Source: Verrucomicrobiota bacterium (GTDB lineage Bacteria > Verrucomicrobiota > Kiritimatiellia > SS1-B-03-39 > UBA6053). From it: 54,541 nucleotides of DNA. Every line of letters begins with the position of its first letter. Position 1 is the stretch's first letter. The DNA lies in NCBI GenBank assembly GCA_046581765.1, contig JAYGFS010000338.1:1-54541 (forward strand). Reading direction: 5' to 3'. Below are positions 6,524-38,229 of this stretch, piece after piece. Made by a program: the position numbers and the translations under genes. The notes beneath the pieces are model-generated. The model was not told the DNA's origin, made no database searches, and saw only the letters and a program-made list of their open reading frames with translations.

Positions 6524-7009
6524 CTACTTTTCCAGGGACAGCGGTCCCTGTTGGTTCAACAGCGTCGCGTTGGCCGAGTCGATATAGTTATCCCAGGCAC
6601 GACTCACCTCGAAAAGCGCCAGCCCGATGAAGCAGAGAACGACCAATAGGGCAACCATCGTCGGCTTGGCGAAGGTACGGGGCCGGATGGCCATCCAGAG
6701 CGCCACCGCGACCATGCTCCCGACGACATGACACAAGGGTACCCGGGCCATGAAATTCATGCTGCGCGCCATGACACTGGCGGACGAGGCTGCCTGGGAG
6801 ACGAAGGCATCCCCGAGGTGGTGCGCGTAAAGCCAGCAGGGCAACAGCGTGATGATCCAGGCGAAGGCAAGCAGGCAGGGGGTGAGGACCGGCTTGCGAG
6901 CCGCCGCGGTCATGGAGGAAGCGAAAAGGAGGCCCCAGAAGAGCACGGCCATGACCAGGCTAACCTGGGGGTAATCACTGAGGCTACCCAGGTAGGTTAA
7001 ATTATTCAT
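6524..7009 (-). CDS. hypothetical small integral membrane protein
   Basis: 161-aa ORF with ATG at 7007..7009 and about four hydrophobic helices. No recognisable domain. It converges on the previous gene with a 7-nt spacer. Confidence 0.6.
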   Translation of the reverse strand: MNNLTYLGSLSDYPQVSLVMAVLFWGLLFASSMTAAARKPVLTPCLLAFAWIITLLPCWLYAHHLGDAFVSQAASSASVMARSMNFMARVPLCHVVGSMVAVALWMAIRPRTFAKPTMVALLVVLCFIGLALFEVSRAWDNYIDSANATLLNQQGPLSLEK

Positions 7010-7259
7010 GGCATCTCCGGTTCAAGGTGCCCGGCCGGACGAGGCCGGGATGCACATCCCTGCAAGCTACGAATGGATTGTACATGGCCACTTCCTCCAT
7101 TCAAGTACTTCCCGGGGAGGTTTATCCCCCACGCACACGTTAACGGCACCATTTTTTTTGGTTCTTTCACGTGGTCAGCGGGCAAGGACCCCATCGCCTT
7201 CCGGTGGAGCACGAGAAAAACCTGTTGCATTCCCCCGGCCGGGTCCCAAGGATAACCCC

Positions 7260-19700: not shown

Positions 19701-20570
19701 CTATGCATCCCCGTCCAGGTCCCGTCCCAGGATCCCCGACACCCGGTCGTTATGCGGCGCATACGTTTCCGCTAAACGCGCACGCGTGTCCACGTTCATC
19801 ACGGGCTTCGGCTTCTGCTGCTGGTTCCAGACCTGTAGCCAGTTCCCCATCCGCTCTACGCCCAGGACACGCAGGGTCTCCTGCACCGGCTTTAACCCGG
19901 GCCGGGTACGAAAATAATCGCGGGTGCCGCCAATGGCATCGCGCATCCAGCGGAATCTCGGTTCGCGACGTTCGTTCACGCGCGCGTACAAACTCGGGGC
20001 TTCGAAGTCGGGATCGACGCCGATGTAGGTGAAGGCATCGCGCAAAAACCGGGCCGGGTCGGCGTGTAGATCCTCAAAAAACATGAAATGAATCTGCTGC
20101 GGGGGAAACAGGGCCTGGAAACGGGCGATATGCTCATCGTAAAAACCGTAGCTGATGAAGTCGGGATATTCTTTCAACAGGCCCTCGAAGGTATCGGGTA
20201 CGACGTATTGCTTGGTCAATTCGTAGTAGAACGAAAATAATGCATCGATTGGATTGCGCAGGGCGATGAGGAGCTTGACCCCTGGGTTGTGATCGTAAAT
20301 CAATTGCGGCGATGCGGGGTCGACCAGGTAGGCCACGCTGTACTCGCCGATCACCTGCCCTTCCTGCGGGGTCTCAAAGTGGGCACGCAACCACTCGGAA
20401 CCCTGGTCGTAGTGCATCGGGCTCGGCGGCCAGACATGTTTCCGGCCAAAGAAGTTCAACTCCTTCGGCTCTGACATGCACACACCGGGATGCTCTTTCA
20501 GGCACTGGCCCAGCCATGTGGTCCCCGCCTTCGCCGCGCCGACGCCGATAAAATCGAGGGTGAAGCTCAC
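19701..20570 (-). CDS. PAPS-dependent sulfotransferase
   Basis: 289 aa. 5'-PSB loop FIGVGAAKAGTTWL and 3'-PB motif ALRNPIDALFSFY. The GTG start forms a GTGA overlap with the upstream stop at 20567..20570. Confidence 0.85.
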   Translation of the reverse strand: MSFTLDFIGVGAAKAGTTWLGQCLKEHPGVCMSEPKELNFFGRKHVWPPSPMHYDQGSEWLRAHFETPQEGQVIGEYSVAYLVDPASPQLIYDHNPGVKLLIALRNPIDALFSFYYELTKQYVVPDTFEGLLKEYPDFISYGFYDEHIARFQALFPPQQIHFMFFEDLHADPARFLRDAFTYIGVDPDFEAPSLYARVNERREPRFRWMRDAIGGTRDYFRTRPGLKPVQETLRVLGVERMGNWLQVWNQQQKPKPVMNVDTRARLAETYAPHNDRVSGILGRDLDGDA

Positions 20571-22898: not shown

Positions 22899-25043
22899 TT
22901 AAAACGCCTCCTCAATCGTGAGCACCTTGCCGCTTGGATCGAGGGCCTGTTCCTCGGCCCCGTACAGGGCACGGCCCGGAAGGCCGGTTTCCATGTAGGC
23001 CGCACGCAGGAATACCGCCACCGGAACGATCGCCCAGACCAGGACGCATACCGCGAGCGAGCGCTTGCGGTGCAGGGAAAGGATCCCGGCAAGCGCGATG
23101 GGCACGAGCAGGAGACTCAACACCGTGCTCAGCACCAGGATCAGCGGTCGAAAAAGTAACTCGATCTTCGTCTCCCCGGCACCGGCTTCGAGCACGATGA
23201 AATGTGAGAAGGCCCCCTTGCCCCTGCGCATCGGCACGTTGGATTTCCACAACGGGAAGAAGGTCCCGAAGTACAGTACCGGTGCCGCCTTTTCCTGGTT
23301 CACGGTCAACTGCAATTCGTTTGGGCCGAAACGATCGAGCTTCAACGTGGCTTCTCCATTCGAGGCAAAGCGCGTGGCGGGAAACCGTGCCGTCTTCGGC
23401 ACGTGCTTCGCGTAGGCTTGATTCGCAGGATGCTCGGCCAGCATTTCCCCCTTCGGATGCAACATGCGCGTCGGGTCACCCTGGAAGGGAGTCATGCGCT
23501 CCAGTATCCCGTCCGGAAAAGAATCTGCCGGGCCGCGCATGCCATGCGGGGATGGATCCGGTCTCAACCAGGTGGCATACTGCGCATAGGCCGTGACGAA
23601 GATGACGACGAGTACCAGGAGGGACAAAAGCTGTGGGACGAGGCCACGGAAACGCAGGAACAATACCGCCGCAAGCCCCCCTCCCAGGCAGAGCCAGACA
23701 AAGGGGCTCAGCGAGGCATCCATGGAAATATTTTCCATCGCGTAAGGCGTATACGAAGAGCCGGTAAAGGGCTCCACCAGGAATCCGCGCACGAGATAGG
23801 CGCTCATCAAGGCCACGGGCAGGAGGAACCAGACCGCCCGCCGGCGATCCTGCTGCAACCACTCGACCCCATGGCTCACAAACCACGTTAACCCAACCAA
23901 TGTCATCCAGTTATGCCTGCCCTGTATGCGGAATCCCGAGAAGCCCGGGAGGTATTCGTAAAGAAACTTGAAGGTATATCCCTGCAGGCCACGGGATATA
24001 TCCGCCATGAGAATGACCCCGATCAGCAGGGCGAGGCTCAGCCGACGTTGACCGCGCGGGATCAGTACCGCCACGCCCCCGGCACCGGCCAGGAGCAGGA
24101 ACACCGGTATAAAATAGGCACTCGCCTGCACGTCGATGGAATAGGGCTGGGCAAACATCGTGATGTACGAATAGGCCAGGGGAAACGAAGCCGCCCAGGT
24201 GATATCATTCCCCGTGCGTTCAGGTGCATTTGCCAGGTCGGCCAGCAGGCCGATTATCGTCGGGAGGGCGACCAGTGCTGCCAGCAGCCCCGCCCCGGCC
24301 AGGTAGCCGAGGCATTTGAAGCTGCGCAAGGTGAACAGCCCGACCACCGCCGTGAAGAGCACCCCGGAATACGGAAGATGCGGATAGCCCGCGCAGAGTG
24401 CCATCCCGAGGCTCAGGCCGAGCCCCAGGGTCCAGGCCATGGCCTCCTTCCGGCTTTCCGCGAAGTCATGCTTCGAGCGGGTCGTGAGCATCAGGGTGCA
24501 GAGCAGCACCCATGGCATCCAGGAAAAGCTCTCGATCGTATTCGCGTATTGAACCGATTCGTTGAAGCGTTGATTCAATAAGACCAGGGAGGCCCCGAGC
24601 ACCGCCGCAGGCGGATGCACCCGCCCGAGCCTGCGCAACAACGCGTAGATCCCACCCAGGCCCCAGGACATGTGCAGGGCAATCTGCAGGTACTCCGCGT
24701 AATAATTCCATAGGCCACCCTTGAGGAAAGCTGCGTTCAGCCACCAGCCCGGCGGATAGCCCAGGTTCGCGCCGCGATACCCCAGTTGCATCACGCCGAA
24801 ACGTTCCAGTGGATTCCACAGCGGCAGGATTCCGTGACTGAGATAATACGCATTGAACTGGGTCCACCAGATACGGTTGCCGTAGAAGTCGTTGCCGTAA
24901 TGCTTGCCGAGCCCGAAAGGCTCGGGAAGTAAAACCACCGCCAGGTAGACGAAGGGCAAGGCAATCAAGGCGGTGATCCATGCGATTTCGCCCCGTCTCG
25001 CCTTAGGCGTGGAAACTTCAAAAGGTATTTCAGCTTCGGACAT
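22899..25043 (-). CDS. YfhO-like / GT-C superfamily integral membrane glycosyltransferase candidate
   Basis: 714 aa and highly hydrophobic. First-loop motif HYGNDFYGNRIWWTQFNAYYL. The extracytoplasmic C-terminal domain ends FFPLWKSNVPMRRGKGAFSHFIVLEAGAGETKIELLFRP and is followed by a terminal TM region. Confidence 0.8.
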   Translation of the reverse strand: MSEAEIPFEVSTPKARRGEIAWITALIALPFVYLAVVLLPEPFGLGKHYGNDFYGNRIWWTQFNAYYLSHGILPLWNPLERFGVMQLGYRGANLGYPPGWWLNAAFLKGGLWNYYAEYLQIALHMSWGLGGIYALLRRLGRVHPPAAVLGASLVLLNQRFNESVQYANTIESFSWMPWVLLCTLMLTTRSKHDFAESRKEAMAWTLGLGLSLGMALCAGYPHLPYSGVLFTAVVGLFTLRSFKCLGYLAGAGLLAALVALPTIIGLLADLANAPERTGNDITWAASFPLAYSYITMFAQPYSIDVQASAYFIPVFLLLAGAGGVAVLIPRGQRRLSLALLIGVILMADISRGLQGYTFKFLYEYLPGFSGFRIQGRHNWMTLVGLTWFVSHGVEWLQQDRRRAVWFLLPVALMSAYLVRGFLVEPFTGSSYTPYAMENISMDASLSPFVWLCLGGGLAAVLFLRFRGLVPQLLSLLVLVVIFVTAYAQYATWLRPDPSPHGMRGPADSFPDGILERMTPFQGDPTRMLHPKGEMLAEHPANQAYAKHVPKTARFPATRFASNGEATLKLDRFGPNELQLTVNQEKAAPVLYFGTFFPLWKSNVPMRRGKGAFSHFIVLEAGAGETKIELLFRPLILVLSTVLSLLLVPIALAGILSLHRKRSLAVCVLVWAIVPVAVFLRAAYMETGLPGRALYGAEEQALDPSGKVLTIEEAF

Positions 25044-25078: not shown

Positions 25079-26368
25079 CTATTTTAAAGACCCAAGCAGG
25101 GGCCTGAGTTGCGCGGCAATCACCTCCGCGGCTTTCGCACAGCCTGCAGGTTTAAAGTGGCAATCGTCATACATCATTTCCAGGGTCTTGGGCACCTCGG
25201 CGGCGAGATCGATCACCAACACCCCTTCCGCCTCGGCCGTGTCGACCAGCACCTGGTTAAATCGCCCCATCGCCTGCTCCAGCACCGGCGTGCGGTACGC
25301 CTCCGTGCGGGTCTGTACGCAGAGCAACTCCTCCAGCTCGGGCGGCATGGGCGATTGCCAGGTCGTCGGCTGGGTCATCAGCACCGGCACAACGCCTTGC
25401 ACTTTCGCGGCCGAGATCAAGGTGCGGATATCGGACCGATAACGCGCAAGGGACGAATCGAAATCGTCCGGCAAGGCGTCGAGTCCCCCGGCGGCAAGCT
25501 TGCGCTGGCGCGCGGCGCGGATATCGGCAATTTTCTGGTCGTAGTTTTCTACCACGCTGCCCTGGTTGATTTGCTGACGAAGGGACCACCACTCCTTGAA
25601 CCTGCGCACCATCCACAGGCGGCGATAATACAAGCCGCCAACTTTTTCGTTAAACAAGAGGCTGTCCCCTTCAATCCGGGCCATGCGCTGGTCGTAGTCC
25701 TCGCGAAAGGCGCGCCCGAGATCGTTGATCCCAGCCAGGATGAGGACGAACTGGAAGTCCTTGATAAAGGTGTAGTTTTCAACCTGATAGGTATGGTTGG
25801 GCATAAAATGCCCGCTGCGACCGGCATTCCCGACGACCACCCCCTGGTCTGCCAATCGTTCATGAAGCTGCCACGGCCAACTTTCCACGTCGGTTACGGC
25901 ACGACATTCCGTGGTACTTCCGCCGATGCACAAGACGGCCTTTCCCGCGGGAAGCTTAAAGTCAGGGGCCCGAACGCCATAGCGATTGACGGTAAAAACC
26001 GCACGAACATCCTCACCCGGGATGGCTTCCTTCAACTCGAGCACGGTCTGCCCTGGATAGTGTGGAAGCCACTGGTCCACCGGGATATGCGGATCGGAGG
26101 CCCGGCCGAAAAACTCGACCAGTACCAAGCCGAGAAGGACGGGATACACGACGGAGATCAGTCGAAAAGTCCGCGTACGATTGACGGTGATAAGGAAGCC
26201 ACCGACCACGTAGGCGAGCAGGAGGACGATGCCGGCAACATCGAGCCGGCCGAGTGCCAGGGGACGCTCGGTGATACACCCGTGAACCAGCAGGACAACA
26301 TGAATCGCGGCAGGCAGGAGATAAAGCATCCAGCGAGCGCGGCGTTCAATGACAGCATCGGTGGTCAC
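25079..26368 (-). CDS. membrane-anchored SGNH/GDSL-family hydrolase
   Basis: Block I is VLCIGGSTTE, block III is LILAGINDL and block V is DDCHF. There are N-terminal TM helices. The start was set at the GTG 26366..26368 (GTGA overlap with the upstream TGA). The ATG at 26329 is an alternative. Confidence 0.75.
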   Translation of the reverse strand: MTTDAVIERRARWMLYLLPAAIHVVLLVHGCITERPLALGRLDVAGIVLLLAYVVGGFLITVNRTRTFRLISVVYPVLLGLVLVEFFGRASDPHIPVDQWLPHYPGQTVLELKEAIPGEDVRAVFTVNRYGVRAPDFKLPAGKAVLCIGGSTTECRAVTDVESWPWQLHERLADQGVVVGNAGRSGHFMPNHTYQVENYTFIKDFQFVLILAGINDLGRAFREDYDQRMARIEGDSLLFNEKVGGLYYRRLWMVRRFKEWWSLRQQINQGSVVENYDQKIADIRAARQRKLAAGGLDALPDDFDSSLARYRSDIRTLISAAKVQGVVPVLMTQPTTWQSPMPPELEELLCVQTRTEAYRTPVLEQAMGRFNQVLVDTAEAEGVLVIDLAAEVPKTLEMMYDDCHFKPAGCAKAAEVIAAQLRPLLGSLK

Positions 26369-27315
26369 GAATCCTTGCGGTTGATCTCTTCGTTCACGAT
26401 GTAAAGCGGGCGGCGGCGAACGTCGCTGTAAATCCGGCCGATGTACTCCCCGATAATCCAGAGGAGGATGAATTGCGCTCCGACAAACCCGAACAGGATG
26501 ACCACCAGCCACTTGTAGAGTTCATATTTGGCCGCGGGGGGACCAAAGACGGTGTCACAAACCATGTAGCCAAGGAAGATCATCGAGATGAGGATGCTGG
26601 TGATGCCGACCCACAGGCCGATCTTGAGCGGGGTAAACGAAAAGTTGAGGATGCCATCCATGGCCAGCTTGAACATTTTCCTGAAGGGGTAATGCGTTTC
26701 CCCGTGCAGGCGATCCGGACGATCGAAGTTGACGAAATCATGCTTGAACCCCAACCAGGCGACCATGCCGCGCAGGTACCGCGCGTGCTCATCGAGGCGG
26801 GTAAGGTTCTCGAGCACGATGCGATCGATGAGCCGGAAGTCGCCTACCTGGCGGGGGATGTCCACGTCCGACATCCCGGAGAGGATCCGATAATAGAGAT
26901 CGGCGGTCCATTTCTTGAGGGCCTTGTCGCTGCGGGACACCCGGCGGGCATAAACGATTTGATTCCCCTCTTCCCACTTGGCCACCAGCTTGGGAATGAC
27001 CTCCACCGGGTCTTGAAAATCGGTATCCATGGTGATGACCGCATCGCCAAGGGCGCGTTCCATACCCGCGGTGAGCGCGGCCTGGTGGCCGAAGTTTCGA
27101 CTGAAGCTAGTGACCCGAACCTTGTCATGCTGAGCGGCGATGGCCTTGACCCGCGCGAGGGTCTGGTCACGGCTGCCGTCATCGACGAAAATAAACTCGA
27201 CCTCGTAGGCCGAGAGCGATGCCTCCGCCATGGTATGCAAGGCCTCAAAGAAGGGCAGCACGTTGTCTTCCTCGTTAAAGACGGGAAGCACGAGGGATAG
27301 GCACTTCCTGCTCAT
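26365..27315 (-). CDS. polyprenyl-phosphate glycosyltransferase (GT2, GtrB/CsbB-like)
   Basis: 316 aa. LSLVLPVFNEEDNVLPFFEAL...FIFVDDGSRDQT...FSRNFGHQAALTAGM...TMDTDFQDP is present, plus two C-terminal TM helices. The junction with the upstream gene is ATGA. Confidence 0.92.
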   Translation of the reverse strand: MSRKCLSLVLPVFNEEDNVLPFFEALHTMAEASLSAYEVEFIFVDDGSRDQTLARVKAIAAQHDKVRVTSFSRNFGHQAALTAGMERALGDAVITMDTDFQDPVEVIPKLVAKWEEGNQIVYARRVSRSDKALKKWTADLYYRILSGMSDVDIPRQVGDFRLIDRIVLENLTRLDEHARYLRGMVAWLGFKHDFVNFDRPDRLHGETHYPFRKMFKLAMDGILNFSFTPLKIGLWVGITSILISMIFLGYMVCDTVFGPPAAKYELYKWLVVILFGFVGAQFILLWIIGEYIGRIYSDVRRRPLYIVNEEINRKDS

Positions 27316-28283
27316 GTGACCCGCCGGGCCGGTTGTCCACGTTTATTCATCCAGATGAAAGGTAACCCGAATCCGGCAATGATCAATCCGATTCCGAACT
27401 GGGCAAGCGACAGCGCGGTGGCCGGTTCGGCGGAGATTCCCTGGGTGCCGAGGAGAACCACAAAGGAGAGTTCCCGCACCCCGAGACCCCCGAAACTCAG
27501 GGGGACAGCCGTGATCAGCCAACTGATGGCAGTTATCATGGACAAGCTGAGAAACCCGATGGGCAAGTCGAGGTTCCGGGCGATCAAGTAGACGGCGAGG
27601 AAGGAGACGAGGTGCATGACGAAACAGAGCAGGATGCCCATCGCAACCCGCCCGCGATTGCTGCGATAGTATTCCGTTGCCCCGGTCCAGGTCTCCAGCA
27701 GGCGCACGAGCTGGGCACCCCGTTTTCCGCATCGACCGAGGATTCCCGCCAGGCTCCGGTTAACGGGTCGGTTCAAGCTCAGCCCGGCCCCGAGCAGGGC
27801 GAGGGAAAACATGCCGCCCATGCCGAGCACGAAAGGGACCTTCTGCTCGAGGCCCTCGGCAAAAACCCCGCATATCGTCCCCAGCAGGAGAATCGAGAAC
27901 AGGCCCACCACCCGGTCGACCAACATGCCCACCAGGTTAATCGCCCGATGACTCTCGGCCTCCTTCATGATGTAGACCGAACGAACGAGGTCACCACCGA
28001 GGGCGCCGGGCATGACGAGGTTAAAGGTGTTGCCGATCATGGTATAGCGGAAATAATCGAATACGTGCCATTGACCGGTGGGATCCGGATTCAGCCACAT
28101 CCACCGCATGCTGGACAAGCCATGGCGAAACACGGTGAGCACGATGTAGAGGAGCACACAGGGTACACTCAAGCCCGCGATGTGTGCCGTGGCCGAACGC
28201 AGGTCCACGAAGTGGAAAAGCAGGCCCAGGCAGACCGTGAGCACCGCAATGCGAAAGACCAGGTTAACGGTTTTTTTATTCAT
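27312..28283 (-). CDS. flippase-like membrane protein (LPG-synthase-TM / UPF0104 family)
   Basis: Trimmed to the ATG at 28281..28283 (MNKKTVNLVFRIAVLTVCLGLLFHF...). The ATG at 28334 is an alternative. It has about 8 TM helices. The motif NLVMPGALGGDLVRSVY is typical of the family as I recall it. Confidence 0.75.
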   Translation of the reverse strand: MNKKTVNLVFRIAVLTVCLGLLFHFVDLRSATAHIAGLSVPCVLLYIVLTVFRHGLSSMRWMWLNPDPTGQWHVFDYFRYTMIGNTFNLVMPGALGGDLVRSVYIMKEAESHRAINLVGMLVDRVVGLFSILLLGTICGVFAEGLEQKVPFVLGMGGMFSLALLGAGLSLNRPVNRSLAGILGRCGKRGAQLVRLLETWTGATEYYRSNRGRVAMGILLCFVMHLVSFLAVYLIARNLDLPIGFLSLSMITAISWLITAVPLSFGGLGVRELSFVVLLGTQGISAEPATALSLAQFGIGLIIAGFGLPFIWMNKRGQPARRVT

Positions 28284-28383
28284 GGAATGTCGTGGGCTAC
28301 TGGTTTCCGGATTCGCAGCCGCTCGTCGCAGCATGTGCTGCTTTCGGTTGCCGGGTTTGCCACCTTGCCGGGACCGCCGGAGC

Positions 28384-29322
28384 TCAGGGATTCTTCTGGA
28401 TGAAGATATCCCAGCCACCCACCAGGGAATACCGGCGGCCGAGCAATCTCCACGGCAGCTTGATGCAGTGGGCGACCAGGGAGCGGAAAAAATGTTCACT
28501 GAAAGCGGTTTCCACGATGGAGGGCTGGGAATGCACGATCCGGTGTGGACCGGATGGGCTGATCGTGGAAAAGTACCCCTCCCAGAAACCCTGGCCCATG
28601 TCGTGGATATGCCCGGGAAAAGTGAAGTCAAGCGTGAGCCCGAAGCGTTTCATCAACCTGAGGACCGGGACCACGAAGGGCGTGCGCACGTAGAGGATGC
28701 CCCCCGGGCGGAGAAACGCGAGGAGGCGTTCCGTCTCGGTCTTGGCATCCGGTAAATGCTCAATAATCGCACTGGCGATCACGATGTCAAAGGTGCCTGC
28801 CGCGGATGCAAGGGCATCCAGGCTGGGTTCGTGCCGCATGGTTATGGCTTCGCGGGTACTCTCCACAACGGCATCGTGGTATTCGACAACGGTGACAACG
28901 ACTTCCGGATACCCGGCAGCCACCAGCTGTTCCGCCATGCGCAGGACGATGGTTCCGTCGCCCCCGCCAAAGTCGAGGATGTTCAGGGAACTCGGTGACA
29001 AGGCCCCCTGTATGACACCGGCCAGGTGGCCCGCGAAACGATTCACGTGCTTAAACGTAACCTGCGAGTCCCCGGGACCATCGTTCCCGGAGCGTTCGTA
29101 ATATCCGGTATAATACATTTCCAGCGCCGCGACGGTGGGAATACGCGAAGCCGTGCACACGCCACAGGAACGGCACTTCATCAAGTCGACATCCGGGTCC
29201 GCCTGCAACCGGGTGACCGCTACCCGGTCATCCACGTCGCAAAACAGGCAGTGGGTCTGCACAGCACCCAGCTCGCTTTCACCCAGGTGCTTGCTCGCAT
29301 GAAACGTGGTGGCATTCGGCAT
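28384..29322 (-). CDS. class I SAM-dependent methyltransferase with N-terminal CxxC...CxxC zinc-ribbon
   Basis: The start ATG at 29320..29322 forms a TGATG junction. Zinc-ribbon cysteines are HCLFCDV...KCRSCGVC. SAM motif I is LNILDFGGGDGTIV. Confidence 0.8.
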   Translation of the reverse strand: MPNATTFHASKHLGESELGAVQTHCLFCDVDDRVAVTRLQADPDVDLMKCRSCGVCTASRIPTVAALEMYYTGYYERSGNDGPGDSQVTFKHVNRFAGHLAGVIQGALSPSSLNILDFGGGDGTIVLRMAEQLVAAGYPEVVVTVVEYHDAVVESTREAITMRHEPSLDALASAAGTFDIVIASAIIEHLPDAKTETERLLAFLRPGGILYVRTPFVVPVLRLMKRFGLTLDFTFPGHIHDMGQGFWEGYFSTISPSGPHRIVHSQPSIVETAFSEHFFRSLVAHCIKLPWRLLGRRYSLVGGWDIFIQKNP

Positions 29323-30866
29323 CAGAAGGTCCTCCCGAAGGTCTTCTCCCACAGGCGCGCGGAACGCGTCCCGGAGGTGAAGGTCTCCAGGGTATGGTCC
29401 AGGCCGGGTCGGATTCCCAGGCCTGTTCCGAAAAGATTATTGGCATCGAGCCAGATATTCCCGGCCGCCCGGCGCTGCTCCAGCGCCAGTTCACCAAAAT
29501 ATGGAATGCCGGCCCAGGCCATGGCCGGCCGGTTGACAGCAATGACATCAAGCGGTTCCGCTACATACCCGAAACCCGGATGGGCGAGGATTTGGGCCTG
29601 CGGCCAATGCGCCAGCACCGTGCGATCGGGATAGTCCGCAGCCAGGGTGGAGGCGATCTCCCGGTTGAGGTGAAGATCCTCTTCGTATTCCAGGCTGCGC
29701 TCAAGGATGTAGCCATTGTTCAGTGCCGGTGAGCGGTAAAAGCGCCCGTGGTGGTTCGCACTGAAGAAAACCACGAGCAGTCCCAGGAAAGGGAGGCTTA
29801 TTTTCGCGGGCAAGGGCTTGAGTGCCAGGGCGAGCAGGATGAAGATCGCGGGATAAAGGAACAACAGGTAACGCGGCAACCAGGAAACGATCAGGATCGA
29901 CTCAAGGATCAGGCCGCCGAGTGCGAGGGCCAGTATCAATGGCATCTCATAGGGCAGGAGACAGGCCCGCCAGCTAAGGGGCTTCAGTACATTTTTTCGC
30001 ACCCGCCAGAGGATAAGCCCCACATGCAAAAGAAGCACCCCGAGCACAAGTGCCATGACATCGGGCACCTGGTTAAACATCATGAGGGTCTGCTCGCGGA
30101 GATAGTCCAGGCGGGAGGCCCCGGCGGGAAAGAAGGTGTCGTTCCCGATAGGATTGGTATCCGGCCGAAAGAAAAGCCAGGCCGCGAGACGGGCCCAACC
30201 TGAAAAATAGATGACGGGCACCAGGTACCCGGCCAGCAGGAGCAGGTCGCGACGGGTTTTCAGGTGGAAGAGGACAAAGCCGCCGGCCAGGCAAATCGAC
30301 ATCAGGGCCGGCATGGGTTTGACCGTTACCGCCACGATCATCGTGATAATGGCCCAGGCATGTTTACGCTGCACATACAGCCAAAAGCCAAGCAGGCACA
30401 GGCCGGCCAACATCAGGTCGCTACCCATCATGGATGCCTGGGCGATAAACATCGGCTGCAGGCACATGGCAAGGCTGGTGCCGATGGCGAGCGCGTATCC
30501 AACCCGCTTGTGCAGCAGCCGGACCATCATGCCGGCGAGGGCAGCCGCGAAGAAGAAGTTCAAAACATGCAGGAACACGAAGGTCGACTTCACCGTGGGG
30601 AAGACATGCATCAGCACGGCGTAAAACCCGGGCAGCCAGGAGAAAAAGTAGGTGCGAGGACCACCGGCCAGGTAGCCAAGTTCCTCACGGGCCAGTTTCA
30701 GGTAATTGAAATCGTTCTCGTACAGCCAGATGCCCTCCTGAAACATCCCGAGGATCGAATCCCAATACGGCGGATTCCCCAGGGCGGACATCCGGTAGAA
30801 GAACAGAAAAATCCACATGCCGAAGAACATCATCCATGAAGGTGATCGGAAAAAGTGAGCGTTCAC
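29322..30866 (-). CDS. GT-C-like (ArnT-type) integral membrane glycosyltransferase candidate
   Basis: 514 aa with at least 10 TM helices and a soluble C-terminal domain. It lies 20 nt downstream of an ArnC-like gene. The track start at 30866 is GTG, and the ATG at 30833 is an alternative. Confidence 0.75.
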   Translation of the reverse strand: MNAHFFRSPSWMMFFGMWIFLFFYRMSALGNPPYWDSILGMFQEGIWLYENDFNYLKLAREELGYLAGGPRTYFFSWLPGFYAVLMHVFPTVKSTFVFLHVLNFFFAAALAGMMVRLLHKRVGYALAIGTSLAMCLQPMFIAQASMMGSDLMLAGLCLLGFWLYVQRKHAWAIITMIVAVTVKPMPALMSICLAGGFVLFHLKTRRDLLLLAGYLVPVIYFSGWARLAAWLFFRPDTNPIGNDTFFPAGASRLDYLREQTLMMFNQVPDVMALVLGVLLLHVGLILWRVRKNVLKPLSWRACLLPYEMPLILALALGGLILESILIVSWLPRYLLFLYPAIFILLALALKPLPAKISLPFLGLLVVFFSANHHGRFYRSPALNNGYILERSLEYEEDLHLNREIASTLAADYPDRTVLAHWPQAQILAHPGFGYVAEPLDVIAVNRPAMAWAGIPYFGELALEQRRAAGNIWLDANNLFGTGLGIRPGLDHTLETFTSGTRSARLWEKTFGRTF

Positions 30867-30886
30867 GATGGGCGTGGGAAGAGGAA

Positions 30887-31846
30887 TCAGGTGTCTTCAT
30901 TCGCATCATCATCCGAATCCACAACGTAGGTCGGACGATCCGTCATGCGGAGGTGTATGCGAGCGAGGTATTCGCCGATGATGCCCAGTGACAGGAGCTG
31001 CGCACCGGCGAAAACAGAGATGATAATGGACAGGAAGGCAAAACCCGGGACCGATGTCTCGTAACGGATCTTCAGGTACATGACGTGGGTGAATACGCCG
31101 ATGCCAAAGAGGATCATGCAGAAACCGATGACATTTGCCAGGCGCAGGGGCAAGGTGCTGAAGCCGGTCATCATGTTCAGGGCGTGGGAAATCAATTTGC
31201 GCACGGTGTAGCCGGAAGAACCAAAGGCACGCTCCTCGTGGCGTACCGGTACGGCAGAAAATCTTGTGGTCGACCAGGTCAGCAACACATCGATGGATAC
31301 ATTCGGGCTTTGATAATCCACAAAGGCCCGGCGCAGGCGCGTGCGAAACACCCGGAAGGCCGATGACTGATGGGCCGTCTCCGCCCCCATCACTCCCTGC
31401 AGTGCGAGCTTGGTGATCCGGGACGCCAGGTTGCGGAACAGCGAGTGCTGCTCTTTTTCCGGTGGACCGTAAACGACGTCATGCCCTTCCTCCAGTCGTG
31501 CGATCAACTTGGCCATCTCTTCCGGCGGATGCTGCAGGTCGTCATCCATGGTAACGAGGATCTCGTAACGGGCCTGCCGGATCCCGCACAGCAGGGCATT
31601 GTGCTGGCCGTAATTGCGCAACAGGTTGACGGGCCTGATCCACGTATGCTCCCCGGAGAGCTCATGCATGACCGCCCGACTGTTATCGGGGCTGCCATCG
31701 TTGACCAGGATGCATTCATACGAGTCGGCCAGCGTGGGCAGCACCGTGCCCAGGGCCTCGATCAAGGCGGGCAGGCATTCGTCGCTCCGGTAGACCGGAA
31801 CCACGACCGAGATCCCCGGTTTCAGCTTTGTGTGATTGGAGTCCAT
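30887..31846 (-). CDS. polyprenyl-phosphate aminosugar transferase (GT2, ArnC-like)
   Basis: 319 aa. ISVVVPVYRSDECLPALIEAL...CILVNDGSPDNS...LLRNYGQHNALLCGIRQA...TMDDDLQHPPEE is present, plus two C-terminal TM helices. This is very like my recollection of ArnC/PmrF. Confidence 0.9.
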   Translation of the reverse strand: MDSNHTKLKPGISVVVPVYRSDECLPALIEALGTVLPTLADSYECILVNDGSPDNSRAVMHELSGEHTWIRPVNLLRNYGQHNALLCGIRQARYEILVTMDDDLQHPPEEMAKLIARLEEGHDVVYGPPEKEQHSLFRNLASRITKLALQGVMGAETAHQSSAFRVFRTRLRRAFVDYQSPNVSIDVLLTWSTTRFSAVPVRHEERAFGSSGYTVRKLISHALNMMTGFSTLPLRLANVIGFCMILFGIGVFTHVMYLKIRYETSVPGFAFLSIIISVFAGAQLLSLGIIGEYLARIHLRMTDRPTYVVDSDDDANEDT

Positions 31847-32529
31847 AACCAGAAGCCTTCGGGAACGAGATAGCGTACACCCAGTCGAGCGTAGATGCCC
31901 ATGACCATGGTGTTGGTCGAGCTGTAGCTGGCAGATCCGATGCGGGCGCCCCGTTTTGCGTATTCAACCATGGCCTTGTGATACAGGTGCATCCCGGAAA
32001 TCGTGGCATCTTTGTGCAACATGGCCAAGGTCAAGTTCAGCGATTTTCCATTCATTTGGGAAACGAACCAGCCCTGGGCGACACCGTCCAAACGAACTTC
32101 CATGCACCATTGGGGTTGCTCAGCGATGAGATTGTTGGCCCAGAGCGCGTAGCGGGTATTCACCCGCTCGGGGGTCGCACCGGGCAGAAGCAGGAAGCGT
32201 TCGTGCTGAAACAGGGCCATGTGGGCGGGATTCAACTGGAAGGATTTATCCGAAGCGAACACCACGTCGATCGGATCCAGGCTGGGCGACGGGTCAACCT
32301 GGTGCAGGCCGATCTTGAAGCGCAACTGGATATCGGCATGGGTAAATCCAGCCGTGCTGAGCGCCCAGGCCGGTACGTCGGTATCATACAATTGGCGGTA
32401 TTCAACCCAGGCGTACGCGGCGAGTTGGGCCTCCTGGTCTGCCAGGGGCTGGTCAAAGAAAGCCGCATCGCTGACCAGCCCGGCCGGCTTGCCCCACCAG
32501 GCCGTGTTAAAAGCGTGTTCGTGAATCAT
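31822..32529 (-). CDS. GNAT-fold N-acyltransferase, WecD/RffC-like (NDP-4-amino-4,6-dideoxyhexose acyltransferase candidate)
   Basis: Start at the ATG 32527..32529 (ATGA junction). The N-terminus is MIHEHAFNTAWWGKPAG. The C-terminal GNAT core is EYAKRGARIGSASYSSTNTMVMGIYARLGVRY. Size and layout resemble E. coli WecD as I recall it. Confidence 0.6.
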   Translation of the reverse strand: MIHEHAFNTAWWGKPAGLVSDAAFFDQPLADQEAQLAAYAWVEYRQLYDTDVPAWALSTAGFTHADIQLRFKIGLHQVDPSPSLDPIDVVFASDKSFQLNPAHMALFQHERFLLLPGATPERVNTRYALWANNLIAEQPQWCMEVRLDGVAQGWFVSQMNGKSLNLTLAMLHKDATISGMHLYHKAMVEYAKRGARIGSASYSSTNTMVMGIYARLGVRYLVPEGFWLWTPITQS

Positions 32530-33686
32530 GCCTGTAGCTCCATGCATTCAAACAATTGCAGCAGGTAATCGTACCCGTCCCACACGGGACCAAAATGATG
32601 CATGGCCGATAATGGCACGAAGCGCTTGACCCGCGCACGGGCCATCCGGGCGAGAAAATCATCGCTCGCCGGCACGGCGAGGGCGTAACCGATGGTTTGA
32701 ATATTCCCGGGCAGGCGCGCGAAGGCGCCCTCCGTGGACATCCCGGTGAGCGGAAGAAATAGCGGGGCATCGATGGGGGGGTGATCCCCTACCCCGATGA
32801 CCGCAGCTCCACGGGGGGCCAAGTCCGCCCGCCAGCCCACGCCCGCCGCCCATTGACGGGCCATGACATTACCCGAAGCGACATGCGGCTCCGGCGACTG
32901 CTTGACCACCCGCGGCCAGGCCTCGACCAGGCGCGTGCGAAAAGCCTCGACCGCGGCAGCGTCGGCATCCAAAAGGATCACCCGCGAGGGCGAGGTACAT
33001 CCGGCCTGGCCGTAGACGAGAAAAACATTGATCAGGGATTCCAGCACCGCGTCATCTGCAGCGGCGGGGTCGATCCAGGCCTCGGAACGCTTGTCGGTAA
33101 AGGGCAGCGAGATACTGTGTAGCGGATGCGGCAGGGATTCGACCCCTTCCACGGCTGGTTCTCCACCGAAGACGATGCGCACCTGGGCTTCACCCGCCAT
33201 CTCGGCATTGCGCGGATCGTGGTGATCGAATACCCCGCGGGTGACGAAGGTATCGAGATAGGTCCGCAATACGGACGCCGGGTCGGCTTCTTCGATAAAA
33301 TCGAGCAAGGCCGCACAGAGATCTTCGCTACGCGAGCCGCCTTTGAAGCGAAGTTTATTTCCCGTCAGGCTGAGCAGGATCATCACCAGGGGGCCGAGTA
33401 AACTGACGTTGTTCGGAAGCCATACCGCAACGCTTCCCCGCGGGTAATACATGCGCGGACCCGCCTCAGCGGGTGCGCAGCGTGATCCGAAAACGGACTC
33501 GTACACACCCCAGAGTTGATCCGACGCGAGAAAGGTCATCAGGTAAGCCCATTCATCCCGGTTGAAAGCCTCCGGAACCTGGCGGGCCATCTTCCCGCGC
33601 AGGCCATCCCAGGCCGCGATAAGGGCCTCGGGATCATAGGGCAGGCTGACGCGGCCACGGGTAAAAGCGAGCAGGTGATCAGACAT
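32526..33686 (-). CDS. LuxC-like acyl-CoA/acyl-ACP reductase family protein
   Basis: Start at the ATG 33684..33686, an 8-nt overlap with the upstream stop. VWLPNNVSLLGPLVMILLSLTGNKLRFKGGSR resembles the LuxC LPGNVP segment. The candidate catalytic Cys lies in YGQAGCTSPSRVILL. Confidence 0.7.
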   Translation of the reverse strand: MSDHLLAFTRGRVSLPYDPEALIAAWDGLRGKMARQVPEAFNRDEWAYLMTFLASDQLWGVYESVFGSRCAPAEAGPRMYYPRGSVAVWLPNNVSLLGPLVMILLSLTGNKLRFKGGSRSEDLCAALLDFIEEADPASVLRTYLDTFVTRGVFDHHDPRNAEMAGEAQVRIVFGGEPAVEGVESLPHPLHSISLPFTDKRSEAWIDPAAADDAVLESLINVFLVYGQAGCTSPSRVILLDADAAAVEAFRTRLVEAWPRVVKQSPEPHVASGNVMARQWAAGVGWRADLAPRGAAVIGVGDHPPIDAPLFLPLTGMSTEGAFARLPGNIQTIGYALAVPASDDFLARMARARVKRFVPLSAMHHFGPVWDGYDYLLQLFECMELQA

Positions 33687-34725
33687 TGGCGCAGCCCCGT
33701 ACTTCGCTTTTAGGTATCCGTCCCATGAGCTCAAAAACCGTGCCGGACCGGCCACACGAGCAAGCACCGGGAACCAGGCGGCCCAGGTCCTCGGTCAGGA
33801 CATTGTGATACGGTGCACCCCAGGAAATGGTATTCATCAATTGCAGTTGGCCGACATCCTCCTCCAGGCATGCACCCGACACGGGATCACGCACGAGGAC
33901 ATCCGCCCAGGCGGGCGCCGTGCGGTACCCGCAGGGACAGAGGGGAAAGATCATGCCAACCTGTTCAACCAGCCCGTAGAAATCCATGACCTGCGAGGCG
34001 GGATCGAGATCCTCTTTCAGTTTGGCATCAAAGGTTGCGGGACTCACTTTTTGCGCCTCAAGCTTTTTCCATCCACCGCTGTGCACGAAGGTAATCCGTT
34101 TGCCTGCAAGTGCCTTTACAACGTCGTCCGGGAAGGCCTGCTCGACCCAGGCGAGCCAGAGCATCCAGGTGAATCCATAGACCATGAACGCATCGTGCCC
34201 GTCAATCGCCTCGAGCAGCTCCGGCCATTTCAAGCTGGCGGGATCGTTGCTGTCTTCGAGGAGGAAATACAACTGGCTCGCCAGGGGCTTGAGGCTCATG
34301 GCCGCCGCGATGCGGGCAGATATCTGGCGGCCACCGCGGAGTGCGCTGGCGCTGTCGAGGATACACAGGGGTTGCTGTTCATCGCCGATAAAATCCTTGA
34401 GCACGGCCAGGGAGCTCTGCGACTGGTATTCACTGCTGCGCGTATCGAGGGCGATCCTGCTCGACACACCGCTGGAGGTCGCAGAAGACAACAGCGTCCG
34501 CACGTGCTTGCTCCCATCGACGGCCGTGCGCAAATCCAGGTGCTTAAACACCTCGACATGCAACCAGGGCAGATCTTCCAGGCATTCGGCCGTGCCCGTA
34601 TCCGGCCAGATGCGCTTATACGCTTCGCAACCGTTCAAATGGTGTGCGCTCAAGGCATTCATCTCCGCGAGGAAAGCGGCATCATCGCGCTTCGCGTAGG
34701 GGGGCTGTTCCACGAATTGGCTCAT
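33679..34725 (-). CDS. LuxE-like acyl-protein synthetase (adenylate-forming)
   Basis: Start at the ATG 34723..34725 (ATGA junction). LPWLHVEVFKHLDL...LLSSATSSGVSSRI occupies the position of the LuxE SSGTTG motif. The C-terminus is GRIPKSEVRGCANV. Confidence 0.75.
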   Translation of the reverse strand: MSQFVEQPPYAKRDDAAFLAEMNALSAHHLNGCEAYKRIWPDTGTAECLEDLPWLHVEVFKHLDLRTAVDGSKHVRTLLSSATSSGVSSRIALDTRSSEYQSQSSLAVLKDFIGDEQQPLCILDSASALRGGRQISARIAAAMSLKPLASQLYFLLEDSNDPASLKWPELLEAIDGHDAFMVYGFTWMLWLAWVEQAFPDDVVKALAGKRITFVHSGGWKKLEAQKVSPATFDAKLKEDLDPASQVMDFYGLVEQVGMIFPLCPCGYRTAPAWADVLVRDPVSGACLEEDVGQLQLMNTISWGAPYHNVLTEDLGRLVPGACSCGRSGTVFELMGRIPKSEVRGCANV

Positions 34726-35865: not shown

Positions 35866-35878
35866 AGGGCAGGTACCT

Positions 35879-37060: not shown

Positions 37061-37064
37061 GATT
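37056..37064. repeat. 9-nt TTCATGATT, left copy flanking the wecE segment
   Basis: An identical 9-mer occurs at 38210..38218. The left copy contains the AMP-ligase start codon. The right copy contains the stop of the GT-C gene. Confidence 0.9.
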
Positions 37065-37098
37065 GCACGCCCCGCGTGCTTGGTTTACCAAGAGGTCC
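37061..37098. promoter_or_regulatory. 38-bp divergent spacer with two short palindromes
   Basis: GCACGC-CCC-GCGTGC (37065..37079) and CTTGG-TTTA-CCAAG (37079..37092) fill the whole gap between the AMP-ligase ATG (37060, minus) and the wecE ATG (37099, plus). A regulatory role is inferred only from position. Confidence 0.3.
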
Positions 37099-38229
37099 AT
37101 GAAGATTCCTTTCAACCGCCCCTTCATCGTCGGCCGTGAACTCGAGTACATTCGCGAAGCGGTCGAGGGCGGACAACTGGCGGGGGATGGCCGTTTCACC
37201 CAGCGCTGCCAGGCCTGGATGGAAGAGCGTTTTGATATCGACAAGGTACTCCTGACAACGTCCTGCACCATGGCACTTGAGATGTCGGCTATCCTGTGCG
37301 ACATCCAACCCCGGGACGAGGTCATCCTGCCCTCTTACACCTTTGTCACCACCGCGAATGCTTTTGTGCTGCTGGGTGCGCAACCCGTGTTCGTCGACAT
37401 CGATCCCACCACGCTGAACATGGACCCCTCGGCCATCGAGGCCCGCATCACGGAGCGCACCAAGGCGATCGTTCCGGTTCATTACGCGGGTGTAGGCTGT
37501 GACATGGACGCGATTGGTGCGATTGCCAAAAGGCATAAGCTCCGCGTGGTCGAGGATGCCGCACAGGGGGTGAACGCGCGTTACCGGGACCGCTACCTCG
37601 GCAGTATCGGGGATCTGGGTTGTTTCAGCTTTCATGAGACCAAGAATTTCATTGCCGGGGAAGGTGGTGCCATCACCATCAACGACCCGGGCCTGGTCGA
37701 ACGCGCGGAGATCATCCGCGAAAAAGGCACGGACCGGAGCAAGTTCTTCCGGGGCGAGGTGGATCGGTATACCTGGGTGGATATCGGGTCGTCGTTTTTA
37801 CCGTCTGAACTGGTGGCCGCCTACCTCTTCGCGCAACTGGAAGAAGCCGATCGCATTACCGAGAAGCGGCTGGCGATCTTCGACCGCTACAGCGCGGGCC
37901 TTCAATCGCTGCAGGATGCGGGAACCCTTCGCCTGCCCATCATTCCCGAACACTGCCAGCACAACGGGCATATGTTTTACCTGATCCTGGATTCGCAGGA
38001 ACAGCGGGCGGACCTGATCGCCCATTTGAAAAGCCGGGACATGCTTGCCGTCTTTCATTATATCCCGCTGCACACCTCGCCCATGGGTCAACGCTTTGGC
38101 GGCCGGGCGGGTGATCTGCCGGTGACCGAGGACCTGAGTAAGCGCCTGCTGCGCCTGCCCTGCTACTTTGAACTGAGCCCTTCCGAGCAGGAGTGCGTTA
38201 TCAAGGCGGTTCATGATTTCTTCCGGTAA
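37099..38229 (+). CDS. wecE: dTDP-4-amino-4,6-dideoxy-hexose (4-keto-6-deoxyhexose) transaminase, DegT/WecE family
   Basis: 376 aa from the ATG at 37099. Near-colinear similarity to E. coli WecE as I recall it: MKIPFNRPFIVGRELEYIREAV, LPSYTFVTTANAFVL, VPVHYAGVGCDMD, VVEDAAQGV, GCFSFHETKNFIAGEGGA, AEIIREKGTDRSKFFRGEVDRYTWVDIGSS, HMFYLIL, AVFHYIPLH, RLLRLP. It is the only + strand gene inside the 44-kb minus-strand array. Confidence 0.95.
   Translation: MKIPFNRPFIVGRELEYIREAVEGGQLAGDGRFTQRCQAWMEERFDIDKVLLTTSCTMALEMSAILCDIQPRDEVILPSYTFVTTANAFVLLGAQPVFVDIDPTTLNMDPSAIEARITERTKAIVPVHYAGVGCDMDAIGAIAKRHKLRVVEDAAQGVNARYRDRYLGSIGDLGCFSFHETKNFIAGEGGAITINDPGLVERAEIIREKGTDRSKFFRGEVDRYTWVDIGSSFLPSELVAAYLFAQLEEADRITEKRLAIFDRYSAGLQSLQDAGTLRLPIIPEHCQHNGHMFYLILDSQEQRADLIAHLKSRDMLAVFHYIPLHTSPMGQRFGGRAGDLPVTEDLSKRLLRLPCYFELSPSEQECVIKAVHDFFR
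38210..38218. repeat. 9-nt TTCATGATT, right copy flanking the wecE segment
   Basis: Identical to 37056..37064. It lies inside the 19-nt convergent overlap of wecE and the GT-C gene. Confidence 0.9.

Follow-up and report, generated by a model that had tools for sequence, protein, structure and literature searches.

The stretch of DNA analysed here (the window) covers positions 1 to 54,541 of contig JAYGFS010000338.1 of a Verrucomicrobiota assembly (GCA_046581765.1; Kiritimatiellia). Its G+C content is ~60%, and its nearest public sequences are contigs of metagenome-assembled genomes (MAGs) labelled Kiritimatiellia (protein identity 93-99%). A very large (~44 kb) glycan-biosynthesis cluster, nearly all of it on the minus strand, spans positions 10.5-54 kb. 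It encodes numerous GT4 and GT2 glycosyltransferases, one sulfotransferase, two FkbM methyltransferases, an AsnB-like amidotransferase, a LegB-like 4,6-dehydratase and a CBS-nucleotidyltransferase. Large polytopic membrane proteins are unusually numerous (a PMT_2 protein, two LA_3751/3752-like proteins, proteins of 514 and 714 aa, and a DUF6044/YfhO protein). We focused on the part of the cluster in which the gene for an ArnC-like polyprenyl-phosphate glycosyltransferase of family GT2 adjoins an acyl cassette, a candidate N-acyltransferase gene and a WecE-type sugar aminotransferase gene (Table 1). The original prediction, made from the sequence alone, had described six genes at 25079-31846 as an Arn-like lipid-carrier branch. 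All six were found on the minus strand at or close to the predicted positions, and their families had been named correctly. The longest open reading frames (ORFs) of the flippase-like and SGNH genes are too long at the start; shorter starts agree with the orthologs in a related locus, L001 (L numbers are our locus labels).

Table 1. Features of the window discussed in the text (TM, transmembrane; positions count from the first letter of the window).
Feature	Position	Strand	Evidence and remarks
WecE-type sugar aminotransferase	37063-38229	plus	Pfam DegT, E-value 1e-95; only plus-strand gene of the cluster
AMP-forming ligase, short, 393 aa	35879-37060	minus	Pfam AMP-binding; first gene of the acyl cassette
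Acyl carrier protein (ACP), 81 aa	35620-35865	minus	DSL serine motif (ETWDSLAVVS); weak NCBIfam ACP matches; in all cassette loci
Fe-dependent alcohol-dehydrogenase (Fe-ADH)-like protein, ~299 aa	34722-35621	minus	weak Fe-ADH matches in Pfam and NCBIfam
LuxE-like acyl-protein synthetase	33679-34725	minus	Pfam LuxE, E-value 1e-39; in all cassette loci, 50-97% identity
LuxC-like acyl reductase	32526-33767	minus	Pfam LuxC, E-value 4e-17; kept in all cassette loci
WecD-fold N-acyltransferase, 241 aa	31822-32547	minus	AlphaFold2 (AF2) model and Foldseek
ArnC-like polyprenyl-phosphate glycosyltransferase, GT2, 319 aa	30887-31846	minus	Pfam GT2; ArnC structure match
514-aa polytopic membrane protein, GT-C superfamily candidate	29322-30866	minus	family profile; invariant PPYWD (D36), LPRY, E389
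S-adenosylmethionine methyltransferase with N-terminal CxxC...CxxC ribbon	28384-29352	minus	Methyltransf_23; CLFC at residue 35, CRSC at 60
Stand-alone LPG_synthase_TM (MprF flippase-domain-like) membrane protein, 323 aa	27312-28283	minus	PF03706, E-value 8e-40; at least 7 TM segments
Second polyprenyl-phosphate GT2, GtrB/PgfS-like	26365-27315	minus	NCBIfam PgfS/GtrB 251 bits versus ArnC 160 bits
Membrane-anchored SGNH hydrolase or acyltransferase	25079-26362	minus	Lipase_GDSL_2, E-value 2e-12; three N-terminal TM segments
714-aa polytopic protein, family unassigned	22899-25043	minus	weak YfhO-type C-terminus
PMT_2-family GT-C, ~541 aa	38211-39836	minus	PMT_2, E-value 2e-8; convergent with the WecE gene
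Tandem paralogs, LA_3751/LA_3752-like	39836-41185 and 41118-42434		43% mutual identity; 8-9 predicted TM segments each; weak NCBIfam LA_3751/LA_3752 match
LegB-like NAD-dependent 4,6-dehydratase and adjoining CBS-domain nucleotidyltransferase	51561-53641		LegB 453 bits, just below the cut-off of 475
Sulfotransferase	19701-20570		inside the glycan cluster; also found in L001

The aminotransferase passes the cut-offs of both NCBIfam WecE models (NF008687, 612.2 bits versus 375; TIGR02379, 585.1 bits versus 434.85) and scores far under that of ArnB (212 bits versus 631). An ArnB-type Ara4N pathway was rejected on these scores and because no UDP-GlcA decarboxylase is present. Since the protein scores as a WecE equivalog and not as ArnB, its sugar is probably a dTDP-4-amino-4,6-dideoxyhexose rather than Ara4N. 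Translation probably starts at the ATG at ~37099, which would leave a spacer of at most ~38 bp (37061-37098) to the divergent AMP-ligase gene. A 192-aa minus-strand ORF at 37057-37635 matches no family and is almost certainly spurious.

The acyl cassette comprises contiguous genes of ACP, AMP-ligase, Fe-ADH, LuxC- and LuxE-like types, clustered with this 4-aminosugar aminotransferase. The ligase has as its top NCBIfam match the 2-oxoglutaryl-ACP ligase AmcH (78 bits, far under the cut-off) and is kept in all cassette loci (48-97% identity). Orthologs of the Fe-ADH-like protein in other loci are classed as Fe-ADH. The start of the LuxC-like gene is uncertain, its longest ORF overlapping the LuxE gene by 89 nt. 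The 241-aa protein that follows has no Pfam, NCBIfam or PDB sequence match. Its AF2 model (predicted local distance difference test, pLDDT, 94.6) finds WecD as the top Foldseek match (2fs5_A, E-value 2e-11, TM-score 0.70/0.75) over the full length of the two-domain fold, and hhalign aligns it with E. coli WecD over the full length at an E-value of 1.3e-3, with a probability of only 18%. Because the 241-aa family has no Pfam GNAT match and is tied to the acyl-ACP cassette, an acyl group other than acetyl is implied.

The gene of the 241-aa protein overlaps that of the ArnC-like GT2 by 25 nt, as had been predicted and as the ORF coordinates confirm (19 nt in the L001 ortholog pair). The best solved-structure match of this GT2 is ArnC (9hwj, E-value 4e-54, full length), ahead of GtrB (E-value 3.5e-37) and DPMS, and its identity to E. 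coli ArnC is 34% over 303 residues. Its alignment with ArnC, GtrB and DPMS spans the entire chain and takes in the juxtamembrane region as well as the two C-terminal TM helices (residues 229-248 and 264-293). Its DxD motif is DDDLQH (residues 101-106), a variant of DADLQN, and the motifs TMDDDLQHPPEE and RNYGQHNALL are both found in it. The protein thus has the sequence features of a polyprenyl-phosphate glycosyltransferase (GT-A domain, DXDLQ, juxtamembrane helices, two C-terminal TM segments). Among annotated plasmids, all of its nearest relatives are arnC genes (33-34% identity). The labels given to the individual proteins in the original prediction held up well: 'strongly ArnC-like' for the first GT2 agrees with its best structure match, identity, DxD motif and TM helices; 'WecD-like' is right for the 241-aa protein by fold, not by sequence families; the LPG-synthase-TM/UPF0104 flippase-like assignment is matched at profile level; and the CxxC...CxxC methyltransferase, the GtrB-like second GT2 and the membrane-anchored SGNH protein are what they had been called.

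We compared gene contexts using the 241-aa family as an anchor (32 homologs, 40-99% identity). Contexts were taken from metagenomes and species-representative genomes; the genome scan used a 9-sequence alignment of the family, and cassette genes were mapped by tblastn. The loci fall into eleven types (the window, L001/L015, L014, L005/L006, L007, L008, L009, L010, L016, L017 and L018), and each anchored locus carries a complete 241-aa/ACP/LuxC/LuxE cassette. We found an ArnC/GtrB-type GT2 no more than one gene away from the cassette in 11/11 types. Its position or orientation takes six forms. It follows the 241-aa gene in the window and L001/L015, precedes the ligase in L008 and L009, stands between the 241-aa gene and the ligase in L007 and between LuxC and the 241-aa gene in L017 and L018, lies after WecE on the opposite strand in L016, and is divergent from the ligase, together with GtrA, in L005/L006 and L010. 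Among the cassette-linked GT2s, eight are orthologous to that of the window (51-83% identity), and three are more distant members of the same class (30%). Labelled sources span several phyla and include Kiritimatiellia, Thermoanaerobaculia, Lysobacterales, the cultured Elongatibacter sediminis and a MAG assigned to Omnitrophota. That GT2 and acyl cassette are kept together through such extensive rearrangement is strong evidence, from gene order, that they function jointly.

The reciprocal comparison started from the GT2. A metagenome scan with an alignment of GT2 orthologs yielded at least 571 relatives, of which the 80 best (55-63% identity) were examined. The cassette and the 241-aa family are absent from 80/80. 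Of these loci, 42 extend at least 2.5 kb downstream. A WecE-like gene, 53-62% identical to that of the window, lies within 5 kb in 41 of them, and a Pfam-recognisable GNAT of ~245 aa lies within the same distance in 30. Because these best 80 relatives lack the cassette and stand beside WecE and GNAT genes, the core of the system consists of the ArnC-like GT2, WecE and an N-acyltransferase. On this comparison of contexts, the acyl cassette with its divergent WecD-fold transferase is one plug-in variant for supplying the N-acyl group. In some GT2-relative loci (L036, L046, L069), a small EamA/SMR-like membrane protein is encoded just upstream, and a gene for a PMT_2 GT-C lies upstream as well. 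In the L036 type (L036:8968-14117; also L060 and L063) an ATP-grasp enzyme takes the place of the GNAT, and a homolog of the window's Zn-ribbon methyltransferase (37-42% identity, same ribbon) directly follows the GT2. The ATP-grasp loci suggest further diversity of the N-substituent, such as an aminoacyl group. On a crude neighbour-joining tree, cassette-linked GT2s are scattered among GNAT-linked ones, which hints that the cassette was gained more than once.

Two candidates for the acceptor-side GT-C lie close to the ArnC-like gene. The 514-aa protein alone has no Pfam, NCBIfam or PDB match; a word-index search yielded 3 relatives and an exhaustive HMMER scan 1271 cluster representatives. 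A 47-member profile of the family matches ArnT (5EZM, E-value 3e-7) and GPI mannosyltransferase 1 (E-value 4e-4), with 13/47 members matching Pfam PMT_2 and 2/47 GT87; no significant match was obtained in hhalign comparison of the profile with the single E. coli ArnT sequence. The model contains ~12 long helices, within the 7-13 TM segments of a GT-C, and the acidic residue expected in the first extracytoplasmic loop is present as D36 of PPYWD, just after the first helix and invariant in the 47 members. A 28%-identical relative is located in an unrelated gene context. When the distant cassette loci were searched with the family profile, none yielded a member, and we therefore rejected the 514-aa protein as a member of the core module.

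The PMT_2 protein (ortholog in L001: 541 aa, 79% identity) is an equally good acceptor-side partner for the product of the ArnC-like enzyme. In the window, L001, L014 and L015, its gene and the WecE gene are immediate neighbours. Other cassette loci encode different large polytopic proteins with 7-13 predicted TM segments, some of them weakly PMT_2-like. BLASTP among the large membrane proteins adjoining the module links only L009 with L036 and L005 with L010, and no conserved GT-C partner could be defined among them. A GT-C-type partner at every locus is plausible but would be lineage-specific, as expected if the acceptors differ.

Gene spacing divides the block further. From the AMP ligase to the methyltransferase, neighbouring genes overlap or are at most 20 nt apart (the 514-aa gene follows the first GT2 after 20 nt and overlaps the methyltransferase gene by 31 nt). 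A 100-bp gap follows, after which the LPG_synthase_TM, second GT2, SGNH and 714-aa genes are again closely packed. The block at 25079-31846 thus probably consists of two units, the latter genes forming a separate branch; a second polyprenyl-phosphate GT2 implies a second lipid-linked sugar. The LPG_synthase_TM protein scores above the cut-offs of PF03706 (137.5 bits versus 33.4) and TIGR00374 (66.6 bits versus 43.2) as a stand-alone domain without the bifunctional MprF architecture (MprF equivalog, 16.8 bits versus a cut-off of 600). A protein of the same Pfam family adjoins the module in Elongatibacter (L018). The second GT2, whose gene overlaps the preceding one by 4 nt, is 27% identical to the first and has two C-terminal TM segments. 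In the SGNH protein (PF13472, 48.5 bits versus a cut-off of 32.9) the GGSTT, GIND and DDCH blocks (Ser, Gly-Asn, Asp-x-x-His) are intact; it is kept only in close relatives. The 714-aa protein has no Pfam, NCBIfam or PDB match and only two homologs in a word-index search, and comparing it with the 514-aa family was not meaningful. A weak alignment (hhalign E-value 0.0095) links its residues 568-635 to the YfhO-type C-terminus of the window's DUF6044 protein. Tentatively, it may be a YfhO-like GT-C partner of the second GT2.

Several related loci have features of their own. The syntenic block of L001/L015, 64-90% identical to that of the window, comes from a MAG labelled 'Candidatus Omnitrophota', and such a label on a block so like the Kiritimatiellia one suggests mis-binning or transfer. 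Here the Zn-ribbon methyltransferase is represented by two tandem paralogs, and a glyoxalase gene separates the AMP-ligase gene from that of the ACP; the window encodes a single methyltransferase and has no glyoxalase gene in the corresponding interval (35866-35878). L018, from the cultured gammaproteobacterium Elongatibacter sediminis CH-27 (NZ_JAZHOG010000007.1), has its cassette and GT2 flanked by the LPG_synthase_TM gene and by genes for a TagF-like CDP-glycerol glycerophosphotransferase, a cytidylyltransferase and an AsnB-like enzyme; at this locus the target may be a teichoic-acid-like glycan. A plasmid search with the LuxC-like protein gave no match, and one with the LuxE-like protein gave only generically annotated cassettes of Rhizobium and Ponticoccus. 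These distant LuxE/LuxC/ACP/AMP-ligase cassettes (L100, Rhizobium anhuiense plasmid pRA_T24_2; L099, a Ponticoccus plasmid; ~32% identity) are accompanied by genes annotated in generic terms as a DegT aminotransferase, an LpxA-like acyltransferase, FabZ and a short glycosyltransferase.

Elsewhere in the cluster, the tandem paralogs weakly match an NCBIfam family (LA_3751/LA_3752) of putative membrane glycosyltransferases, and the pair raises the already unusually high number of GT-C-like proteins. The LegB-like/CBS-nucleotidyltransferase pair is reminiscent of the GDP-GlcNAc branch of legionaminic-acid-type pathways. The sulfotransferase gene hints that the product of the cluster is a sulfated polysaccharide. 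Three large ORFs of the window (49375-51564, 729 aa; 7008-8723, 571 aa; 2929-6516, 1195 aa) have no NCBIfam match, and the 729-aa and 571-aa ORFs, the two that were scanned against Pfam as well, have no match there either.

Taking the family assignments, the WecD fold and the genomic linkage together, we think it somewhat probable that the region encodes an Arn-like three-component route by which an N-acyl 4-amino-4,6-dideoxy sugar is added outside the cytoplasm, and we infer its chemistry as follows. The WecE-type transaminase, judging by its family, would yield a dTDP-4-amino-4,6-dideoxyhexose of the Fuc4N or Qui4N type. The AMP ligase would load a small, probably dicarboxylic or hydroxy acid on the dedicated ACP. 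LuxE-like activation and LuxC-like reduction, together with the Fe-ADH-like enzyme, could then turn the free carboxylate into an alcohol, so that the ACP would carry a short acyl group in omega-hydroxy or similarly reduced form. This scheme would mirror the pathway proposed for the tetronate of V. cholerae. The WecD-fold protein would place the acyl group on the 4-amino group of the sugar, and the GT2, clear in its family and predicted in its substrate, would move the N-acyl sugar to undecaprenyl phosphate (Und-P). ArnC accepts only an N-acylated (N-formylated) donor (PMC12690121), and obligatory N-acylation upstream, with an N-acyltransferase that is invariably present, would therefore make sense. 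After flipping, the sugar would be transferred by a GT-C enzyme, the adjoining 514-aa protein or else the PMT_2 protein encoded next to WecE, and so decorate the envelope glycan made by the surrounding ~44-kb cluster. The Zn-ribbon methyltransferase, a recurrent accessory of the module, probably acts on the sugar or the acyl group. The LPG_synthase_TM protein, the second GT2, the SGNH protein and the 714-aa protein would deliver a different sugar, as the gene spacing suggests.

A number of observations weigh against such a route. No RmlA or RmlB gene that would provide the WecE substrate was found within the window, where the sole 4,6-dehydratase is LegB-like, and no WecE gene lies within 10 kb in L018. 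The ArnC-like GT2 stays below the ArnC equivalog cut-off (NF007986, 198.2 bits versus 529), and although ArnC R137 is kept, R128 is aligned with a proline. It also lacks an arnB/arnA/arnD/arnT context: no ArnA or ArnD homolog occurs among the scanned cluster ORFs, and the aminotransferase is WecE. The route also presumes that an enzyme of this class can use a dTDP donor. In L014 (10702-11501; Kiritimatiellia MAG JAPYUI010000080.1), from a MAG that is 94-97% identical, the block is 93-99% identical to the window, yet its GT2 is internally deleted, with residues 1-142 and 229-319 kept and residues 143-228 gone; the population may truly carry a deletion or a pseudogene, or the assembly may be at fault. 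At other loci, GtrA or EamA-like proteins stand in place of LPG_synthase_TM. On the acceptor side, orthologs of the 514-aa protein occur only in L001-L003, L014 and L015, and its AF2 model, built from 3 sequences, has a pLDDT of 48.4, with top Foldseek matches (AglB, PglB, ALG9, STT3) that are all GT-C enzymes but are not significant (E-value at least 0.04, TM-score ~0.3). The original prediction that this protein is a GT-C is hence carried by the family profile and a weak hint from the fold, and not by a confident fold model. Its expectation that the ArnC-like and GT-C genes would be conserved with the acyl cassette came true for the former in all eleven locus types, and for the 514-aa gene in Kiritimatiellia-type loci only.

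One could also read the six genes as a single linear Arn-type line for one sugar, in which LPG_synthase_TM flips, the SGNH protein deacylates like ArnD and the 514-aa GT-C transfers; a cationic aminosugar would then be placed on lipid A or core and confer resistance to cationic peptides. All of the genes share one strand and are co-linear, the entire block is syntenic in L001/L015, the SGNH protein retains its catalytic blocks, and an LPG_synthase_TM gene adjoins the module in Elongatibacter too. However, the SGNH, second GT2 and 514-aa genes are missing from the module beyond close relatives, the 100-bp gap divides the block in two, and the line has no role for a second polyprenyl-phosphate GT2. 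No deacylase of any family is kept beside the cassette, and so elaborate and dedicated an acyl cassette would be an unlikely source of a transient protecting group. We consider a single line unlikely. What survives of the original prediction is an N-acyl 4-amino-6-deoxyhexose on Und-P, consistent with the WecE equivalog, the WecD fold and the linkage of GT2 and cassette; the single line does not survive, and the deacylation step found no support. A different possibility is that the ArnC-like protein, as a GT2 anchored in the membrane, transfers the N-acyl sugar directly to an Und-PP-linked glycan or another lipid within the cytoplasm, with the GT-C-like proteins engaged in unrelated steps (polymerisation, ligation or protein O-glycosylation). 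The score below the ArnC equivalog cut-off would fit, as would the flagellin islands of Aeromonas, where the GT2 downstream of luxC is a direct transferase (PMC7874193), and the Rhizobium plasmids, where LuxC/LuxE/ACP/DegT cassettes adjoin a short, generically annotated glycosyltransferase and no gene annotated as arnC-like. Yet the window GT2 aligns with ArnC, GtrB and DPMS through both TM helices, whereas the Aeromonas Fgi-1 enzyme is without TM helices (PMC7874193); the nearest annotated plasmid relatives are all arnC, and GtrA, EamA/SMR-like and PMT_2 genes recur beside GT2 orthologs. Direct transfer therefore appears improbable, slightly more so than the single line.

Within the three-component reading, the choice of GT-C is less clear. 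Rather than the 514-aa protein, the PMT_2 protein might be the acceptor-side enzyme, with a protein (O-glycosylation) or lipid A as its possible target and with the 514-aa protein serving the second GT2 or another donor. Besides abutting WecE genes in the window and its close relatives, PMT_2 GT-Cs flank ArnC-like orthologs in L009, L036, L046 and L069, and those of L009 and L036 are 35% identical. On the other hand, it is the 514-aa gene that is packed between the GT2 and the module-associated methyltransferase, and BLAST finds no similarity between the window PMT_2 protein and its counterparts at other loci. We regard this assignment as a real but minority possibility.

The Arn (PmrF) pathway for L-Ara4N on lipid A likewise combines a DegT-family 4-aminotransferase, obligatory N-acylation before transfer (PMC12690121), an ArnC-type polyprenyl-phosphate GT2 and a PMT_2/ArnT-like GT-C. 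The window differs in that its aminotransferase is a WecE equivalog and not ArnB, which points to a 6-deoxyhexose substrate, probably a dTDP-sugar. In place of the ArnA formyltransferase it has the WecD-fold enzyme and the ACP/LuxC/LuxE cassette, and it encodes no ArnD-type deformylase, ArnE/F or UDP-GlcA decarboxylase; its GT2 is far below the ArnC cut-off. In the enterobacterial common antigen pathway, dTDP-Fuc4NAc is made by WecE, whose cut-offs the window aminotransferase passes, and by WecD, whose two-domain fold the 241-aa protein has. There, however, dTDP-Fuc4NAc is used by the cytoplasmic WecF on Und-PP-linked lipid II and is not loaded on Und-P, and the 241-aa family differs from WecD in its link to an acyl-ACP cassette and in having no match among the Pfam GNAT models.

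The three-component paradigm comprises a polyprenyl-phosphate monosaccharide synthase, a flippase and a GT-C (PMC11127046). Systems of this kind (GtrA/GtrB/Gtr*, Klebsiella Gal addition, Citrobacter undP-Ribf/GT136, CsbB/YfhO) share their logic with the proposed route, and the second GT2 of the window is nearest to PgfS/GtrB. In contrast to them, the predicted donor is an N-acylated 4-amino-4,6-dideoxyhexose whose biosynthesis genes travel with the synthase, and the flippase candidate of the window is an MprF-type LPG_synthase_TM protein, not GtrA, SMR or MATE. Francisella FlmF2/FlmK/NaxD (GalN), Bordetella LgmABC (GlcN), mycobacterial PpgS/Rv3779 (GalN) and Rhizobium RgtE/RgtA-D (GalA) also couple a GT2-made polyprenyl-phosphate sugar to GT-C transfer. 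The Francisella, Bordetella and mycobacterial systems use an N-acetyl hexosamine from UDP-HexNAc pools and a deacetylase, and Rhizobium Rgt uses galacturonic acid. To our knowledge, none of them has a 4-amino-4,6-dideoxyhexose or a dedicated acyl-ACP cassette.

Cassettes with an ACP, AMP ligase, LuxE, LuxC and a dehydrogenase are known from the V. cholerae O1 tetronate genes (PMC3441752) and from flagellin glycosylation islands (PMC7874193, PMC4875605). In V. cholerae O1 wbeK-O (VC0248-VC0252) and in the Aeromonas and Enterobacteriaceae flagellin islands, the same domain inventory stands beside 4-amino sugar genes, the likeness being one of domain types. Those cassettes feed cytoplasmic assembly (a GDP-perosamine polymer, and flagellin O-glycans with a soluble GT2), whereas the window-type cassette is always linked to a membrane ArnC/GtrB-type GT2. 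Functional assignments of the individual Wbe proteins are reportedly given by Morona et al. in 1995. In the open-access literature we found no described Und-P-Fuc4N, Und-P-Qui4N, viosamine, or ArnC plus 4-amino-6-deoxyhexose system, which is not proof of absence. The novelty that the original prediction claimed for an acyl cassette combined with an Arn-type line thus stands in so far as no described system was found, but it is narrower than claimed, because a simple GNAT takes the place of the cassette in most of the nearest GT2 relatives and the cassette type was already known.

Relatives of the synthase occur on at least 571 metagenomic contigs, and cassette loci come from at least five lineage labels. 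We consider it an even question whether they represent a widespread, uncharacterised pathway in which an ArnC-like synthase loads an N-acylated 4-amino-4,6-dideoxyhexose on Und-P for extracytoplasmic envelope decoration. The N-acyl modules of such a pathway would be interchangeable (a GNAT supplying acetyl, an ATP-grasp enzyme, or the acyl cassette with its WecD-fold transferase), and N-acylation may license lipid loading by analogy with N-formylation for ArnC. Polyprenyl-phosphate monosaccharides used outside the cytoplasm have so far been Glc, Gal, GlcNAc, GalN, Ara4N, GalA, Man and pentofuranoses, and dTDP-Fuc4N is already made by E. coli. If the pathway exists, Und-P-linked N-acyl-4-amino-4,6-dideoxyhexoses would be a new class of donor used outside the cytoplasm, and N-acylation as a general gate for ArnC-type enzymes would be suggested. 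No paradigm is overturned, and all functional steps are our reading of families and gene context. Broader in scope, and more useful, is the recognition of a compact and portable module (ArnC-like GT2, WecE and N-acyltransferase) that is abundant in environmental bacteria. Overall, this module could help to predict side-chain chemistry in uncultured Kiritimatiellia, Acidobacteriota and Gammaproteobacteria.

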